Shown piece after piece: positions 36,865 to 44,300 of a stretch of DNA of 64,000 nt. A model generated the notes under the pieces. It was not told the DNA's origin. It saw nothing but the letters and a program-made list of their open reading frames with translations, and did no database searches. This DNA is from an uncultured Actinomycetota bacterium (lineage in GTDB: Bacteria; Actinomycetota; Actinomycetes; JAHEKZ01). The DNA lies in contig CAVQYR010000001.1 of assembly GCA_963718235.1 (NCBI GenBank), positions 1,504,001 to 1,568,000 on the forward strand, read 5' to 3'. The position numbers were made by a program, and so were the translations under genes. The number at the start of each line of letters is the position of its first letter. The stretch's first letter is position 1.

Positions 36865-38200
<1,336 letters not shown>

Positions 38201-38290: not shown

Positions 38291-38364
38291 TCATCGGCTC
38301 ACCAGGGGTGGCTCGGGGTGCCTGGTCCGATTTCCGCTAGGCGGCGGTGCACATCCGGTGTTGG

Positions 38365-39813
38365 ATGAGTTCTGTGCCAGACGACGCGACCACCTTGTAC
38401 CGCGCGGTGAGCGGGCGCGACCCGCGGTTCGACGGGCGGTTCGTGTTCGCCGTGACGAGCACCGGCATCTACTGCCGCCCGTCGTGCCCGGCGCGTACCC
38501 CTCGCCCGGAGAACGTGCGGTTCTACCCCGTTCCGGCGGCGGCGGTGGCCGCTGGCTTTCGGGCCTGTCGTCGCTGCCGTCCCGACGCGGTACCCGGCAG
38601 CCGCGAGTGGGACCACCGAGGTGACCTCGCCGCCCGCGCGCTGAGGCTCGTCGCCGACGGGGCAGTCGATGACGAGGGCGTGGCTGGCCTGGCCCGCCGG
38701 CTCGCGGTGAGCGAGCGGCACCTGCACCGCACCCTCGTGGCCGAGCTCGGCGTCGGGCCGCTGGCCCTGGCGCGCACTCGTCGCGCGCAGACCGCCCGGC
38801 TGCTGCTGGAGCAGACCGACCTGTCGGTCACCGACGTGGCCTTCGCGGCCGGCTTCGCCAGCATCCGCCAGTTCAACGACGTGATGCGCCAGGAGTTCGG
38901 CGAGCCACCAAGTGCCCTACGGCGACGCGGTGCGCTCGCCGACCGCCCGGCCGAGGCCGGTCCGCTGGTCCTGCGGCTCGCCACCCGTCAACCGTGGGAC
39001 GCGGACGCGACGATGCGGTTCCTCGCCGCGCGTGCGATCCCGGGCGTGGAGGAGGTCGACGACGGTGCGTACCGCCGGACCCTGCGCACCGCCGAAGGGG
39101 TCGGCCGGGTCGAGGCCAGGGCCGACTCCGGTCGACTGGCCGTGCGGCTGCTGCTGCCCTCGCTCCCCGCGGTTCGCCCGGCCGTGGCCGCGCTGCGCCG
39201 GCTGTTCGACCTGGACGCCGACCCGCTGGCGGTCGACGAGGCGCTCGGTGCCGACCCGGTGCTGGCCCCCCTGGTCCAGGCCCGCCCCGGGCTGCGCGTG
39301 CCGGGCACCGTCGACGGGTTCGAGCTGGCGGTGCGGGCCGTGGTCGGGCAGCAGGTCTCGGTGGCCGGGGCGCGGACCCTGCTGGGGCGGGTCGTCGCCC
39401 GGTGCGCAGGCGGCGAGGCCGGCGAGGCAGCGGCGCTCGAAGGGCCGAGCCACGCGTTCCCCAGCCCCGCGGTCGTCGCCGCCGCCGACCTGTCCGGGCT
39501 CGGGCTGACCGGCCGCCGGGTCGACACCCTGCGCCGGTTGGCCGAGTGCGTTGCCGACGGGGGGCTCTCACTGGCCCCGGGCGCCGACCTCGCCCAGGCG
39601 CGGGATCGCCTGCTCGCCCTGCCGGGCATCGGTCCGTGGACCGCCGACTACGTCGCCATGCGCGCCCTGGCCGACCCCGACGCGTTCCCGGCCGACGACC
39701 TGGTGCTGCGCCGGGTCGTCACCGAGCTGCGCGCGGACCCCGACCGCTGGCGCCCGTGGCGCGCCTATGCCGCCGTCCACCTGTGGAACCGCCCGACCAA
39801 GGAGCAACCATGA
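38365..39813 (+). CDS. alkA: Ada-AlkA fusion: methylphosphotriester sensor/AraC regulator plus 3-methyladenine glycosylase
   Basis: STGIYCRPSC, FRACRRC, AraC HTH, GQQVS, LPGIGPWTADY, WRPWRAYA. Confidence 0.94.
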   Translation: MSSVPDDATTLYRAVSGRDPRFDGRFVFAVTSTGIYCRPSCPARTPRPENVRFYPVPAAAVAAGFRACRRCRPDAVPGSREWDHRGDLAARALRLVADGAVDDEGVAGLARRLAVSERHLHRTLVAELGVGPLALARTRRAQTARLLLEQTDLSVTDVAFAAGFASIRQFNDVMRQEFGEPPSALRRRGALADRPAEAGPLVLRLATRQPWDADATMRFLAARAIPGVEEVDDGAYRRTLRTAEGVGRVEARADSGRLAVRLLLPSLPAVRPAVAALRRLFDLDADPLAVDEALGADPVLAPLVQARPGLRVPGTVDGFELAVRAVVGQQVSVAGARTLLGRVVARCAGGEAGEAAALEGPSHAFPSPAVVAAADLSGLGLTGRRVDTLRRLAECVADGGLSLAPGADLAQARDRLLALPGIGPWTADYVAMRALADPDAFPADDLVLRRVVTELRADPDRWRPWRAYAAVHLWNRPTKEQP

Positions 39814-40322
39814 GTCTCTCCGTCACCACCTTCAGCACCCCTGTGGCGCCGTGGACGGTCGTCGTCGACGAGCAGGGGGTCGTGGTCGCCTCGGGTTTCT
39901 CCGACGAGCAGGACACGGTCTCCCGCCTCACCGAGACGCAGCGCTCGGGCCTGCGTCGGGTCGACGACGTCGGCGGGGTGTCACAGGCGGTCCACGCCTA
40001 CCTGGCCGGTGACGTCGACGCGCTGGACGTCGTCCGGGTCGCCCAGCCCGGCGGCCCGTTCCAGCAGCAGGTGTGGGCGGTGATGCGCGAGATCCCCGCG
40101 GGACAGACGTGGAGCTACGCCGACCTGGCGACCAAGGCCGGTCGGCCGTCGGCCACGCGGGCCGCAGGGACGGCCTGTGCGCGCAACCTCGTCGCACCGT
40201 TCGTGCCCTGCCACCGGGTCGTGCGCAGTGACGGCACCCTCGGTGGCTACTACTACGGGCTGCCGGTCAAGGAGTGGTTGCTGGCCCACGAACGCCAAGC
40301 GCGAGCCTCCTCAACCGCCTGA
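39810..40322 (+). CDS. ogt: Methylated-DNA--protein-cysteine methyltransferase
   Basis: FQQQVW, RAAGTAC, PCHRV active site; ATGA overlap with alkA. Confidence 0.93.
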   Translation: MSLSVTTFSTPVAPWTVVVDEQGVVVASGFSDEQDTVSRLTETQRSGLRRVDDVGGVSQAVHAYLAGDVDALDVVRVAQPGGPFQQQVWAVMREIPAGQTWSYADLATKAGRPSATRAAGTACARNLVAPFVPCHRVVRSDGTLGGYYYGLPVKEWLLAHERQARASSTA

Positions 40323-40340: not shown

Positions 40341-41372
40341 TCAGGCCTCCAGCGCCGGGCGACGGCCGAGCAGGGGAGGCAGCTGGAGCACGGCCTGGGC
40401 CAGTGCGCGGAGGTCACCGTTGACCAGCGCCTGCGCGCCGTCGACCAGGGCCGCCTCCGGCTCGGGGTGGACGTCGACGATGATCCCGTCGGCGCCGACC
40501 GCGATGGCCGCGCGGGACAGCGGGACGACCAGGTCCTTGCGCCCGCCGGAGTGGGAAGGGTCGACCACCACGGGCAGGTGCGACATCGAGTGGGCGACAG
40601 GGACCGCCGAGATGTCCAGCGTGTTGCGGGTCGCGGTCTCGAACGTGCGGATCCCTCGCTCGCACAGCACGATGTCCAGGTTGCCCCGCTGGGCGATGTA
40701 CTCCGCCGCCATGAGCCACTCCTCGATGGTCGAGCTCATGCCGCGCTTGAGCATGACCGGCTTACCGACCGACCCGACCGCCTGGAGCAGGCTGAAGTTG
40801 GCCATGTTGCGTGTCCCCACCTGCAGCATGTCCGCGTAGGAGGCCACGAGGTCGACGTCGTCGGCGTCGACCACCTCGGTCACCACGGGCAGGCCGGTCT
40901 CGGAGCGGACGTCGGCGAGGATCCGCAGCCCGTCCTCACCGAGCCCCTGGAACGCGTACGGGGACGTGCGTGGCTTGTAGGCGCCGCCCCGCAGCAGTGA
41001 GGCCCCGGCAGCCTGGGCCATGAGGGCCGCCTCGAGGGTCTGCCCCGGGTTCTCCACGGCACACGGCCCGGCGATCAGGGTGAACGTGTCCGGTCCGATC
41101 GGTACCCGCCGCTGACCGACGTAGACCGTGGTCATGTCCGGGTGGTGCTGCCGGCTCACCAGCTTGTAGGGCGCGGAGATCCGCACGACGTCACTCACGC
41201 CCAGCATGCCGCGCAGGTCGAGAGCGCCGAACCGGTCGACGTCGCCGACGAGACCCACGATGGTGCGTGAGACGCCGCGGCTCACGAATGCCTCACCCCC
41301 GGCGCCCTCGACCCGGGCCACGACGGCATCGACCTGCTCGTCGGTTGCGCTCGGACTCATCACCACGACCAT
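40341..41372 (-). CDS. aroF: Type I-beta DAHP synthase with N-terminal ferredoxin-like regulatory domain
   Basis: IAGPCAVE, GGAYKPRTSPY, GTRNMAN, LKRG, CERGIR, DPSH; AAGGAG SD. Confidence 0.95.
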   Translation of the reverse strand: MVVVMSPSATDEQVDAVVARVEGAGGEAFVSRGVSRTIVGLVGDVDRFGALDLRGMLGVSDVVRISAPYKLVSRQHHPDMTTVYVGQRRVPIGPDTFTLIAGPCAVENPGQTLEAALMAQAAGASLLRGGAYKPRTSPYAFQGLGEDGLRILADVRSETGLPVVTEVVDADDVDLVASYADMLQVGTRNMANFSLLQAVGSVGKPVMLKRGMSSTIEEWLMAAEYIAQRGNLDIVLCERGIRTFETATRNTLDISAVPVAHSMSHLPVVVDPSHSGGRKDLVVPLSRAAIAVGADGIIVDVHPEPEAALVDGAQALVNGDLRALAQAVLQLPPLLGRRPALEA

Positions 41373-41414
41373 GACTCACTCCTTCTTCGGTAGCGGCGCC
41401 ACCCGGGCTGGGCC

Positions 41415-41449
41415 AACGAAAGAGCCCCGGGCGTTCGCCTCGGGGCCTT
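41415..41449 (-). terminator. Attenuator terminator hairpin in the aroF leader
   Basis: Minus strand GCCCCG-A-GGC-GAAC-GCC-CGGGGC followed by TCTTTCGTT. Confidence 0.8.
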
Positions 41450-41469
41450 GTCGGTGCAGGAGGTGCGCG

Positions 41470-41547
41470 CTACGCCGCATTCACCTGGCTGCCCGTCCGG
41501 AGACCCCGGCTGGGAAAGCCATAGAACGCAAACCACTGACGCTGCAT
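41470..41547 (-). CDS. Aromatic-amino-acid leader peptide MQRQWFAFYGFPSRGLRTGSQVNAA (attenuator of aroF)
   Basis: TATGCT-N6-ATG leaderless start; TGG TTT GCG TTC TAT GGC TTT cluster; stop about 20 nt before the terminator. Confidence 0.85.
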   Translation of the reverse strand: MQRQWFAFYGFPSRGLRTGSQVNAA

Positions 41548-41567
41548 AGCGCGAGCATAGACCACGC

Positions 41568-42425
41568 TCACCGTCCACGCAGGCGCTGCAGGGTGGCCAC
41601 GTCCTGACGGTGGTCGGCCTGGTCGCCGGGGGTCTCGATGACGACCGAGGCGTGCCTCACGGTCCGGTGCCGCAGCAGCGCCCGGAACGGCGCCTCACCG
41701 AGGTGGCCGAGCCCGACGCGTTGGTGCCGGTCGGCGCCTGCCCCGCAGGCGTCCATGGAGTCGTTCGCGTGGACCAGGAGCAGCGGTACACCGCCGGAGA
41801 CCAGGGCCAGCCGGTCGAGGTAGCGGGTCATGCCGCCGCGGGCGGCGAGGTCGTGCCCGGCGGCGTGGGCGTGGCAGGTGTCCAGACACAGTGCCAACCC
41901 CGGGTGCGGCCCGACGAACTGCAGGTACCGTTCGATCTCCTCGAGCGTCGAGCACAGAGACCGACCCTGTCCGGCCATCGGTTCGAGCAGGAGGCTCAGG
42001 CCCAGTCGGTCACCGAGGTCGAGCCGGGGCAGGAGGGCCTCACGGGTGCTGCGCATCGCCTCGTCGTACCGGTCCGCGAGCACCGCCGAGCCGGTGTGGA
42101 CGACGACCCCCCGGGCCCCGATCGCCTCGGCCCGACGCAGCGTGTGGTCCAGTGACTTCACCGACCGGGCGACGACGGCGGGGTCGGGGCTGCCCAGGTT
42201 CACCAGGTACGACGCGTGGACGAAGGCCGGCAGGCCGTCGTCGGTGGCCCGGCGGAAGACGGCGTCCTGCTCGTCGTCGCCTGGGGTGGGAGCCCATCCG
42301 CGGGGGTTCGTCACGAACACCTGCACCGCCTCGGCGCCGATGGCGCGCGCATACGCCAGACCCCGCCGGGCCAGCCCGCCGGACACCGGGACGTGCGCGC
42401 CGACCGGAGGGTGCCCTGGCGGCAC
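41568..42425 (-). CDS. nfo: Endonuclease IV (AP endonuclease)
   Basis: GAHV, NPRGW, HASYLVNL, DTCH, HANDS, DRH, IETP. Confidence 0.92.
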   Translation of the reverse strand: MPPGHPPVGAHVPVSGGLARRGLAYARAIGAEAVQVFVTNPRGWAPTPGDDEQDAVFRRATDDGLPAFVHASYLVNLGSPDPAVVARSVKSLDHTLRRAEAIGARGVVVHTGSAVLADRYDEAMRSTREALLPRLDLGDRLGLSLLLEPMAGQGRSLCSTLEEIERYLQFVGPHPGLALCLDTCHAHAAGHDLAARGGMTRYLDRLALVSGGVPLLLVHANDSMDACGAGADRHQRVGLGHLGEAPFRALLRHRTVRHASVVIETPGDQADHRQDVATLQRLRGR

Positions 42426-44300
42426 CTAGATGATGCCGATCCGCACGACGCTGCCCTTGGGTGCCTGCGTCCCGCCCTTGGGGTCCTGGGACGCGACCCG
42501 GTTGAGGGGGCTGATCCCGAACGGCTCGTAGATGTCCGGGACGAAGCCGGCCGCCTTCAGCTTGGCGATCGCGGTGTCGACCGGGTCGTCGATGACGTCG
42601 GGAACCGTGACCAGGGGCGGTCCGAGCGAGACCACGACGTTGACCGTCGTGCCCTGGGCCACCGAGACCCCGGCCCGCGGGTCCTGACTGATGATCGAGC
42701 CCTTGGCAACCCTGGAGCTGTACGCCTCGTCGCTCTGGCTGATCGTCAGTCCCGCGCTCTCCAGGGTGCGCTGCGCCTCGTCGTAGGGGGTGTTGGTCAC
42801 GTTCGGCACATTGACGGGGGGCAGGCCCTTGCTCACCACCAGGTCGACCGCCGTGTCGGGGCGGACCGACTGCCCCGCCCTCGGCTCGGAGCTGATCACG
42901 CGCCCTTCGGGAACGCTCGAGGAGAACTTGCGGGTCACTGCACCCACCGTGAGGTTGTTCTTCGACAGTGCCGCCCGGGCCTCGTCCACGGTGAGGTTCT
43001 CCAGCCGGGGGACGTCGTAGCGCTCCGGCCCCTTCGACAGGATCAGCACGACCGTGCCGTCGCGGCTCACCCGGTCGCCGGGGGCCGGGTCGGACTCCAC
43101 CACCTGACCCTCGGGGACGATCTCGCTGAACTGCGGGTCGCCGTAGTCGAAGGCGAGTCCGGCCTCCTGCAGCGTGGTCTCGGCTTGCTTGCTGCTGACG
43201 CCGACCACGCCCGGAACGGTCGTGTACCGACCGCTGCCGAGCCACCAGGCCAGCCCTCCCACCCCGACGGCCAGCAGCACGACCAGCAACAGGGCCAGCG
43301 GACCGCGCCATCGCTTGCGGCGTGCCGGCGCCGAGGGCTCTTGGACGGCCGGCGGGACCGCCACCACTGACGTGTCGTGCTGGGTGGGTCGGTCGACGAC
43401 GGCCGTCTGCTGGAGGTCCTCGTCGAGCACGGCCGGTGCGGGCTCGACGACGAGTAGGCGACGGACGGCCTTGACCTGGCTGAGAAACACCCCCGCGTCG
43501 GCGGGACGCCGCTCCGGATCGCGCGAGGTGGCCTGCAGCACCAGCTCGTCGAGGCTCGCCGGGAGGGACGGGACGCTGCGGGAAGGGGCCGGGACGGACT
43601 GGTTCACGTGCTTCGACGCGACATCCCACGCCGTGTCACCGGAGTACGGCGGCTGGCCGACGAGCATCTCGTAGAGCAGGATCCCGGCCGCGTAGATGTC
43701 GGTGCGCGGGTCGACGTGCCCGTGCTGCACCTGCTCGGGTGCGAGGTAGGCAACGGTGCCGAGCAGGAGCCCCTGGGTGGCGGGGGTCGCCGTCCCGCCG
43801 GTGGCTGCCCGCGCCAGTCCGAAGTCGGCGACCTTGACGACACCGTCGTCGCGGATCAGCACGTTCTCCGGCTTCACGTCACGGTGCACGATGCCCGAAC
43901 GGTGTGCCGCGGCCAGGGCCTGCAGCACCGGCTCGAGCACGTCGAGCGCCTCAGCGGGTGAGAGCCGGTGCCGCTGCTCAAGCACGTCGCGCAGGGTCTG
44001 GCCGGAGACGTACTCCATGACCAGGAACACCACGCCGTCGTCGTCGCCCTGGTCGAAGACCGACACGACATGGTTGTCGTTGAGCCCGGCCGCGGACTGC
44101 GCCTCGCGGGTGAATCGAGCCACGAAGTCGGCGTCACTGGAGAATGCCGGGCTCATCACCTTCAGTGCGACTGTGCGGTTGAGGCGGGTGTCCAGCCCCT
44201 CGTAGACGGCTGCCATGCCCCCCCGGGCAAGCAGCTCCGAGACGAGGTAGCGACCGTCGAGTGTCCGGCCCACCAATGGGTCGATCCCCGTCCTGTCCAC
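42426..44300 (-). CDS. pknL: PASTA-domain Ser/Thr protein kinase (PknL-like)
   Basis: ARGGMA, VALK, HRDVKPEN, DFGLAR, YLAPE, TM helix, four PASTA repeats; divergent from Rv2175c-like gene. Confidence 0.92.
   Translation of the reverse strand: MDRTGIDPLVGRTLDGRYLVSELLARGGMAAVYEGLDTRLNRTVALKVMSPAFSSDADFVARFTREAQSAAGLNDNHVVSVFDQGDDDGVVFLVMEYVSGQTLRDVLEQRHRLSPAEALDVLEPVLQALAAAHRSGIVHRDVKPENVLIRDDGVVKVADFGLARAATGGTATPATQGLLLGTVAYLAPEQVQHGHVDPRTDIYAAGILLYEMLVGQPPYSGDTAWDVASKHVNQSVPAPSRSVPSLPASLDELVLQATSRDPERRPADAGVFLSQVKAVRRLLVVEPAPAVLDEDLQQTAVVDRPTQHDTSVVAVPPAVQEPSAPARRKRWRGPLALLLVVLLAVGVGGLAWWLGSGRYTTVPGVVGVSSKQAETTLQEAGLAFDYGDPQFSEIVPEGQVVESDPAPGDRVSRDGTVVLILSKGPERYDVPRLENLTVDEARAALSKNNLTVGAVTRKFSSSVPEGRVISSEPRAGQSVRPDTAVDLVVSKGLPPVNVPNVTNTPYDEAQRTLESAGLTISQSDEAYSSRVAKGSIISQDPRAGVSVAQGTTVNVVVSLGPPLVTVPDVIDDPVDTAIAKLKAAGFVPDIYEPFGISPLNRVASQDPKGGTQAPKGSVVRIGII

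Follow-up and report, generated by a model that had tools for sequence, protein, structure and literature searches.

A putative leaderless attenuator rich in Trp, Phe and Tyr codons precedes the type I-beta DAHP synthase gene of many actinomycetes

[quoted passage not shown] We propose that this frame and the hairpins that follow it form a classical ribosome-mediated transcription attenuator of the trpL/pheL type, carried by a leaderless transcript and controlling aroF, a reading to which we assign a probability of roughly 0.85. The shikimate pathway begins with DAHP synthase. The sequence features of the element, the uniqueness of the frame in its genome, its conservation, its codon bias and the existence of alternative pairings in its RNA are shown by the analysis.

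The leader of aroF in the window

The element consists of the following parts (the evidence for each is given in brackets).

41559-41554, minus strand: -10 promoter box TATGCT, of the TANNNT type (sequence read directly)
41553-41548, minus strand: 6-nt spacer CGCGCT between the -10 box and the ATG (sequence)
41547-41545, minus strand: start codon ATG of the leader (sequence)
41547-41470, minus strand: leader peptide frame MQRQWFAFYGFPSRGLRTGSQVNAA, 25 codons and a stop (sequence, genome uniqueness, homologous frames)
41535-41515, minus strand: putative sensor codons TGG TTT (GCG) TTC TAT (GGC) TTT, i.e. W5 F6 F8 Y9 F11 (sequence)
41529-41477, minus strand: hairpin P1, the putative anti-antiterminator (minimum-energy folds, shuffle z-scores)
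41513-41501, minus strand: putative antiterminator strand, with the core CGGGGUCU at 41508-41501 (near copy of the terminator 3' arm)
41472-41470, minus strand: stop codon TAG of the leader frame (sequence)
41448-41441, minus strand: AGGCCCCG, the partner of the antiterminator in the terminator 5' arm (complementarity to CGGGGUCU)
41447-41423, minus strand: putative terminator hairpin GGCCCCG-A-GGC / GAAC / GCC-CGGGGCU (sequence and a fold of -19.4 kcal/mol)
41422-41415, minus strand: U-rich tail CUUUCGUU (sequence)
41384-41379, minus strand: Shine-Dalgarno sequence AAGGAG of aroF, 6 nt 5' of the aroF ATG and outside the terminator hairpin (sequence)
41372-40341, minus strand: aroF, type I-beta DAHP synthase of 343 amino acids (Pfam)

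The first-pass annotation of this stretch had placed the -10 box, the spacer, the ATG, the frame, the hairpin and the antiterminator from the letters alone, and a re-reading of the minus strand found all of these coordinates right. It had also described five of seven consecutive codons as aromatic, with W, F and Y all present, which is what positions 41535-41515 hold (codons 5-11 of the leader). The complete frame reads ATG CAG CGT CAG TGG TTT GCG TTC TAT GGC TTT CCC AGC CGG GGT CTC CGG ACG GGC AGC CAG GTG AAT GCG GCG TAG; two of its three Phe codons are TTT and its lone Tyr codon is TAT. The -10 box begins at the ninth base past the stop of the upstream gene (i.e. 8 nt after it), and aroF starts 50 nt past the hairpin at 41447-41423.

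The host genome (3.17 Mb, 70% G+C) makes sparing use of the two codons: across 755 long frames, 154 of 8414 Phe codons are TTT and 214 of 6032 Tyr codons are TAT; W, F and Y together make up 6.5% of all codons in the same frames. Both strands of the genome were scanned for leaderless-type frames (TANNNT, 5-9 nt, ATG or GTG, and a frame of 8-45 codons). Among the 130 short frames thus recovered, the aroF leader is the only one with at least four aromatic residues in a window of seven (it has five), and a further eight reach three in seven; the rate expected by chance for at least three in seven is about 9 matches per 6.3 Mb of strand. The one exceptional frame immediately precedes aroF, the genome's sole class I DAHP synthase gene and its sole gene with a PF00793 match (its product combines DAHP_synth_1, E = 1.5e-79, with the N-terminal ferredoxin-like domain DAHP_snth_FXD, E = 9.3e-19). 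We judge that the aromatic leader frame is not a chance occurrence.

Conservation among actinomycete aroF loci

The leader was sought at 109 aroF loci, made up of 29 full-length loci from related genomes (a protein search located the enzyme in 28 of 41 of them) and 80 named GenBank records from a species-representative genome collection. Two positive loci (L017 and L019) come from genomes marked unpublished; they stand within all counts and decide none. For each gene we examined 400 bases of upstream DNA and scored as positive those with a leaderless-type short frame holding at least three aromatic residues in seven. A search of this kind for upstream W/F/Y reading frames had been suggested as a check in the first-pass annotation, and it recovered such frames at 63 of the 109 loci. 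The positive loci are spread over several actinomycete orders and include Streptosporangiaceae, Actinomadura, Spirillospora, Nocardiopsis, Microbispora, Nonomuraea, Planotetraspora, metagenome-assembled genomes of Frankiales and Nanopelagicales, and the host's own family. The gene 5' of the leader varies by genus, and the leader remains with aroF.

The 63 loci yield 61 distinct peptides, with W present in 58, F in 59, Y in 59 and all three in 54. The order of the aromatic residues is free, as is apparent when WFAFYGF of the window is set beside AYYWFT, FWFWFGY, VYFFWFD, AWSFWYG, NFWRFYGY and RWYGF of its relatives. Thus, composition is kept while order varies, as would be expected of a sensor of codons and not of a functional peptide.

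The preference for codons rare in the GC-rich host, which the first-pass annotation had remarked on in the single leader of the window, is borne out across the group. TTT makes up 71 of 112 leader Phe codons (63%) against 10 of 371 (2.7%) in the adjacent aroF genes, and TAT makes up 42 of 95 leader Tyr codons (44%) against 6 of 305 (2.0%), the comparison being drawn with the first 999 bases of each aroF gene. The enrichment across the leaders marks the rare codons as a family trait and not as an accident of the window.

A TANNNT box lies 5-8 nt (nearly always 6-7) before the start codon at all 63 aromatic leader frames. Box and spacing are those of leaderless actinobacterial transcripts (PMC8079986; bioRxiv 10.1101/834739). 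They support the leaderless start that had been put forward for the window, and translation of the leader frame probably begins at the 5' end of a leaderless RNA. Downstream of the leader stop, a terminator hairpin with a U-rich tail is present at 62 of the 63 loci; the 10 nt past the stem hold a median of 6 U across the 63 relatives, against 2.2 expected from leader composition. Hence the hairpin and U-rich tract described in the window have counterparts in nearly all relatives, and we take them as a probable site of termination. The distance from the hairpin to aroF ranges from 7 to 100 nt.

RNA structures and alternative pairings

The structural comparison was based on an alignment of 51 representatives, all less than 90% identical to one another. 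The core of the terminator stem, GCCCCG/CGGGGC (41446-41441 / 41429-41424 in the window), is invariant or nearly so in this alignment, and two outer terminator pairs covary among AU, GC and GU. Stem covariation, which had been suggested as a second check, is thus seen in the outer terminator pairs; RNAalifold, run on the 51 sequences, recovered the terminator alone. On a 17-sequence sub-alignment of the frame it gave nothing useful, the arms of P1 being offset by 1-2 columns between lineages. P1 and the antiterminator were therefore assessed by shuffle controls on single sequences.

Intrinsic terminators do not usually have a core so nearly invariant across orders; this segment may be constrained by having to pair with two partners, one of them inside the reading frame.

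Between the first aromatic codon and the stop, every representative folds into a single long hairpin, P1. In the window its 5' arm spans codons 7-14, including F8, Y9, F11 and the antiterminator strand, and its 3' arm is the remainder of the frame (minimum-energy fold of -28.3 kcal/mol for nt 19-76 of the leader). Compared with dinucleotide shuffles, the P1 stretch has a median z of -1.65 among the representatives, with 41 of the 51 below -1 and 16 below -2; for the window the values are -28.8 kcal/mol against -23.5 kcal/mol for shuffles (z = -1.83).

In its upper part, the 5' arm of P1 nearly duplicates the terminator 3' arm. In the window, CGGGGUCU (41508-41501) can form eight pairs, one of them G-U, with AGGCCCCG (41448-41441), and the best duplex between frame and terminator 5' arm has an energy of -12.6 to -34.1 kcal/mol among the representatives (-15.1 kcal/mol in the window). 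In 45 of 49 representatives this duplex starts 0-9 nt past the last clustered aromatic codon.

We modelled the competition by constrained folding, in which the RNA extended up to the terminator loop and a ribosome was set on each aromatic codon in turn, masking the leader to 10 bases past the A-site codon. With the ribosome on aromatic codons, 49 of 50 representatives show pairing of the leader with 6-15 nt of the terminator 5' arm; in the fiftieth (L054) the hairpin had been wrongly picked. For the window, the antiterminator pairs with 41448-41441 when the ribosome is placed on W5, F6, F8 or Y9 and the 3' arm is absent. When the mask runs through to 10 bases past the stop, the pairing is seen in none of the 50. 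Engagement of the 5' arm brings a median gain of -14.2 kcal/mol, where shuffled leaders gain -7.7 kcal/mol, and no more than 2 of 40 shuffles do as well as the real leader in 36 of the 49 representatives (in the window, -11.4 against -6.4 +/- 2.8 kcal/mol, with 2 of 40 shuffles doing as well). The antiterminator pairing that the first-pass annotation had proposed is thus recovered in the window, has an equivalent in 49 of 49 representatives and exceeds the shuffles in most of them.

Proposed mechanism

Where transcription starts, that it ends at the hairpin, which way the switch works and how it answers each amino acid are inferred, and we reason that the element would work as follows. Transcription would begin at ATG 41547 or directly beside it, and the 5' AUG would be loaded with a 70S ribosome. 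When charged tRNA-Trp, tRNA-Phe and tRNA-Tyr are abundant, the ribosome would reach the stop at 41470, P1 (41529-41477) would re-form behind it and sequester CGGGGUCU, the terminator (41447-41423) with its U tail would then fold, and most transcripts would end near 41415. A shortage of any one of the three charged tRNAs would stall the ribosome on W5, F6, F8 or Y9, where it would cover the lower 5' arm of P1 and, by blocking that hairpin, leave CGGGGUCU free. The latter would pair with AGGCCCCG as soon as this segment emerges (before the 3' arm of the terminator is made), and RNA polymerase would continue into aroF. Decoding of UUU and UAU, which are rare and wobble-read, is probably slow, and this would raise the sensitivity of the sensor. 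In such a scheme aroF would very probably be switched on only when Trp, Phe or Tyr runs short.

Counter-evidence and alternative explanations

Several observations weigh against this mechanism or limit the reach of the data behind it. The frame is absent from 46 of the 109 loci, among them those of Streptomyces, Nocardioides, Jiangellaceae, Jatrophihabitans and some Frankiales and Marmoricola records, and a looser, promoter-free search of the intergenic DNA at these 46 gave no further aromatic frame. Three of the negatives have less than 130 nt of upstream DNA (two of the three show the tail of a leader or a terminator at the contig edge), and four of the 46 (L003, L005, L034 and L089) carry a frame of the same build with only one or two aromatic codons. 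L003 and L005 belong to the host's own family and, with two and one aromatic codons, respectively, retain frame, P1 and terminator. Moreover, related sequences are not independent, so the counts overstate their statistical weight.

The leader frame of L005 (L005:2626-2694, minus strand) begins with MQRQ and has the length of the window leader, with one Phe remaining, and that of L003 (L003:1371-1430, plus strand) has a Tyr and a Phe as its only aromatic residues. Both are natural 'codon-swap' variants and potentially informative controls.

The energies raise further points of the same kind. In the window and at equilibrium, the complete terminator is more stable than the antiterminator conformer by 4.0-7.2 kcal/mol under every stall mask (-48.9 against -44.9, -47.1 against -43.1, and -47.1 against -39.9 kcal/mol), so that the switch would have to be kinetic. 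In the trp leader of E. coli, too, the terminator is the more stable structure and the choice between conformers is kinetic. When a 28-nt footprint stands for the ribosome and the RNA behind it is left free, the antiterminator pairing persists in 40 of the 49 representatives for a ribosome at the stop codon, and in 31 of them for RNA that carries no ribosome; the energies therefore locate a competing pairing and do not by themselves establish its dependence on stalling. Furthermore, the antiterminator strand begins only 1-9 nt past the last aromatic codon, and a ribosome stalled on the last one (F11) would cover it; not every aromatic codon need be productive.

The sole RNA run that holds part of the stretch is a metatranscriptome in contig form (run X1, from sediment), a form uninformative on transcript starts and ends. 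It shares 0.13 of sampled words with the stretch, most of its pieces are less than 90% alike and belong to other organisms, and nothing in it covers 41474-41596. Over 41301-41463 one 166-nt contig of X1 matches the window exactly, taking in both the terminator and the start of aroF; as the contigs carry neither strand nor ends and possibly derive from DNA, it is evidence neither way.

Three other explanations were weighed against the proposed attenuator. The short frame could act as a sensor whose output is translation or messenger RNA stability and not termination, on the model of the mycobacterial poly-Cys frames, in which stalled ribosomes unmask a ribosome-binding site. Mycobacteria have documented leaderless sensory frames that work through sequestration of this site (Canestrari et al., bioRxiv 10.1101/834739), and the window leader, within the same phylum, would likewise read amino acid supply through ribosome pausing. 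The U tail of the window is, in addition, imperfect, and a generic scan called neither a sigma-70 consensus promoter nor a terminator at the leader locus, although its rules (at least five T in eight and an E. coli-like -35 element) are ill-suited to actinobacterial promoters and to imperfect U tails. Against translational control stands the U-rich tail that follows the hairpin in nearly all relatives at close to three times the U content expected (median of 6 in 10 nt). The poly-Cys frames act on the ribosome-binding site itself, whereas the window element has its terminator hairpin and U tail well upstream of that site: the Shine-Dalgarno sequence of aroF (41384-41379) lies outside the hairpin, 31 nt past the last base of the tail (41415), and the variable distance between hairpin and aroF is unfit for conserved masking. 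We regard control at this level as distinctly improbable.

It is also improbable, in our estimation, that the attenuator is real without being leaderless. In that case the frame would start at GTG 41571, be coupled to the stop of the upstream AP-endonuclease-family gene and be carried on a read-through transcript of the kinase/endonuclease operon. The in-frame GTG does overlap the TGA (41570-41568) of that gene in a GTGA stop/start (41571-41568), a frame of 33 codons (eight more than the leader) is formally open, and the transcription start in the window is a predicted one. Other genera, however, have a different upstream gene (e.g., the end of a PASTA kinase directly upstream, or unrelated frames) and still place an ATG or GTG 6-7 nt past a TANNNT box without any extended in-frame coupling, so that box, spacer and start are the only conserved 5' feature. 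Mere coincidence, with the hairpin serving as terminator of the upstream gene and the aromatic frame arising by chance or encoding a small functional peptide, has little credibility left: the hairpin lies about 120 nt past the stop of the upstream gene and might end that transcript too, and spurious open frames are plentiful in GC-rich genomes, but the frame is unique in its genome and is kept with aroF across orders whatever the upstream gene; the aromatic composition is conserved where the peptide sequence is not, the rare-codon enrichment is confined to the sensor codons, and the segment that mimics the terminator arm follows right behind the aromatic codons.

Comparison with known systems

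Attenuation is a textbook mechanism, and leaders that sense several amino acids are known. The four-segment logic of E. coli trpL and pheL (as outlined in PMC11802643) recurs in the window leader, where sensor codons lie within a frame and are accompanied by a putative anti-antiterminator, antiterminator and intrinsic terminator. It differs in that trpL and pheL have a 5' untranslated region with a Shine-Dalgarno sequence and sense one amino acid, whereas the window leader is probably leaderless and holds three aromatics. Furthermore, a ribosome at the stop of trpL or pheL covers the antiterminator strand, while in the window the stop is about 30 nt beyond that strand, and hence the re-folding of P1 behind the ribosome would have to do the masking.

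Leaderless leader peptides are described as the norm among actinobacterial attenuators in PMC8079986, which reports several from Streptomyces lividans TK24 (trpL, leuL, ilvL and others) with a TAnnnT -10 consensus. Like those, the window leader has a TAnnnT box followed by a hairpin and a U-rich stretch; transcription in S. lividans starts at the start codon of leaders of 12-29 codons, and the predicted 5' end in the window lies at the same point. None of the eight leaders given in PMC8079986 precedes an aro gene or mixes three aromatics.

A leader-peptide attenuator on an actinobacterial DAHP synthase has been described before, in the aroR-aroF system of Corynebacterium glutamicum, which was predicted by Mentz et al. 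2013 (PMC4046766) and characterised by Neshat et al. 2014 (J Biotechnol 190:55, as summarised in PMC11802643 and PMC7356990). The aroR leader is reported to hold Phe-Tyr-Phe and no Trp, the operon is induced by limitation of Phe but not of Tyr (PMC11802643), and the aroR brake has been removed in strain engineering of C. glutamicum (as mentioned in PMC7356990). Both systems are actinobacterial, and in both a short, aromatic-rich leader directly precedes a DAHP synthase gene; in C. glutamicum a stalled ribosome increases transcription of the aroF operon, and the same mode is proposed here. They differ in that aroR lacks Trp, whereas the window leader and 54 of the 61 distinct peptides of its group hold Trp together with F and Y, and in the enzyme, which we take to be E. 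coli-like and of type I-alpha in C. glutamicum, against a type I-beta enzyme with a ferredoxin-like domain in the window. We place the window leader with aroR by its proposed mode of action and do not file it in the aroR family.

The first-pass annotation, which knew of no leaderless attenuator for all three aromatics on an actinobacterial aroF, had therefore missed a described attenuator on an actinobacterial DAHP synthase. A search of openly available full texts returned no paper in which a Trp/Phe/Tyr leader precedes a type I-beta DAHP synthase gene. Look-ups of gene names in two comparative papers gave no mention of aroF/aroG, aroH, pheA or tyrA in the searched text of Seliverstov et al. 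2005 (PMC1262725), and none of aroF/aroG in that of Naville and Gautheret 2010 (PMC2965389).

Genomic context

Upstream of the leader and on the same strand lie a gene for an AP-endonuclease-2/xylose-isomerase-like TIM-barrel protein (41568-42425) and one for a PASTA Ser/Thr kinase (42426-44300, minus strand). Two plus-strand frames, an Ada/AlkA-like one (38341-39813) and one for a 6-O-methylguanine-DNA methyltransferase (39810-40322, Pfam DNA_binding_1), converge on the 3' end of aroF, which points to aroF being monocistronic with its leader.

A gene for a type II DAHP synthase (Pfam DAHP_synth_2) is located 3 kb from aroF (36880-38173, plus strand). Near 37775-37791, at a CCCGGGCCGG run, its match passes from one frame (profile positions 5-311) to another (306-438), and the split is either a real frameshift or pseudogene or an assembly error of the homopolymer type. 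In the former case, the type I-beta enzyme under the proposed attenuator would be left as the sole intact DAHP synthase.

A Trp leader was also looked for before trpE (anthranilate synthase component I) in the same genome, where neither a Trp-rich frame nor a terminator was found; trpE starts 8 bases past the stop of a hisI-like frame (L114 ~380-800; G000:C1:1620500-1620930). With no such leader at trpE, the aroF leader may be the sole route by which transcription responds to Trp supply.

Significance

Control of the DAHP synthase level in high-GC actinomycetes beyond Corynebacterium is poorly documented in searchable papers. A scan of 40800-42200 against Rfam release 15 (E up to 10) returned chance-level matches only (E > 5, well below gathering scores). 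This version of the attenuator, marked by three aromatics together and by rare wobble-read codons, is widespread and uncatalogued in that release. For annotation, the gain is a missing small gene and a cis-regulatory RNA absent from Rfam. For the strain engineering of producers of aromatic compounds, the leader is an evident brake to remove, as was done with aroR, and the contrast in codon use between leader and aroF offers a clean natural case of codon-level tuning in a ribosomal sensor.

At its broadest, the comparison leads us to favour, by a modest margin over doubt, the existence of a large uncatalogued family of leaderless tri-aromatic leaders. Such leaders would gate the type I-beta DAHP synthase with ferredoxin-like domain in many actinomycete orders. 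The charging states of three tRNAs would be combined by one and the same ribosome, its sensitivity would be tuned by rare UUU and UAU codons in genomes that hardly use them elsewhere, a Trp signal would be added, and the conserved terminator core would be the footprint of a three-way pairing with one partner in a coding frame. The ferredoxin-like domain of the Thermotoga maritima DAHP synthase binds Phe or Tyr, according to PMC5526877. By analogy, Trp supply may act back on the type I-beta DAHP synthase through the leader alone, and, if the family reading is true, it would add a Trp signal that is absent from the Phe/Tyr-binding allosteric domain of the enzyme.

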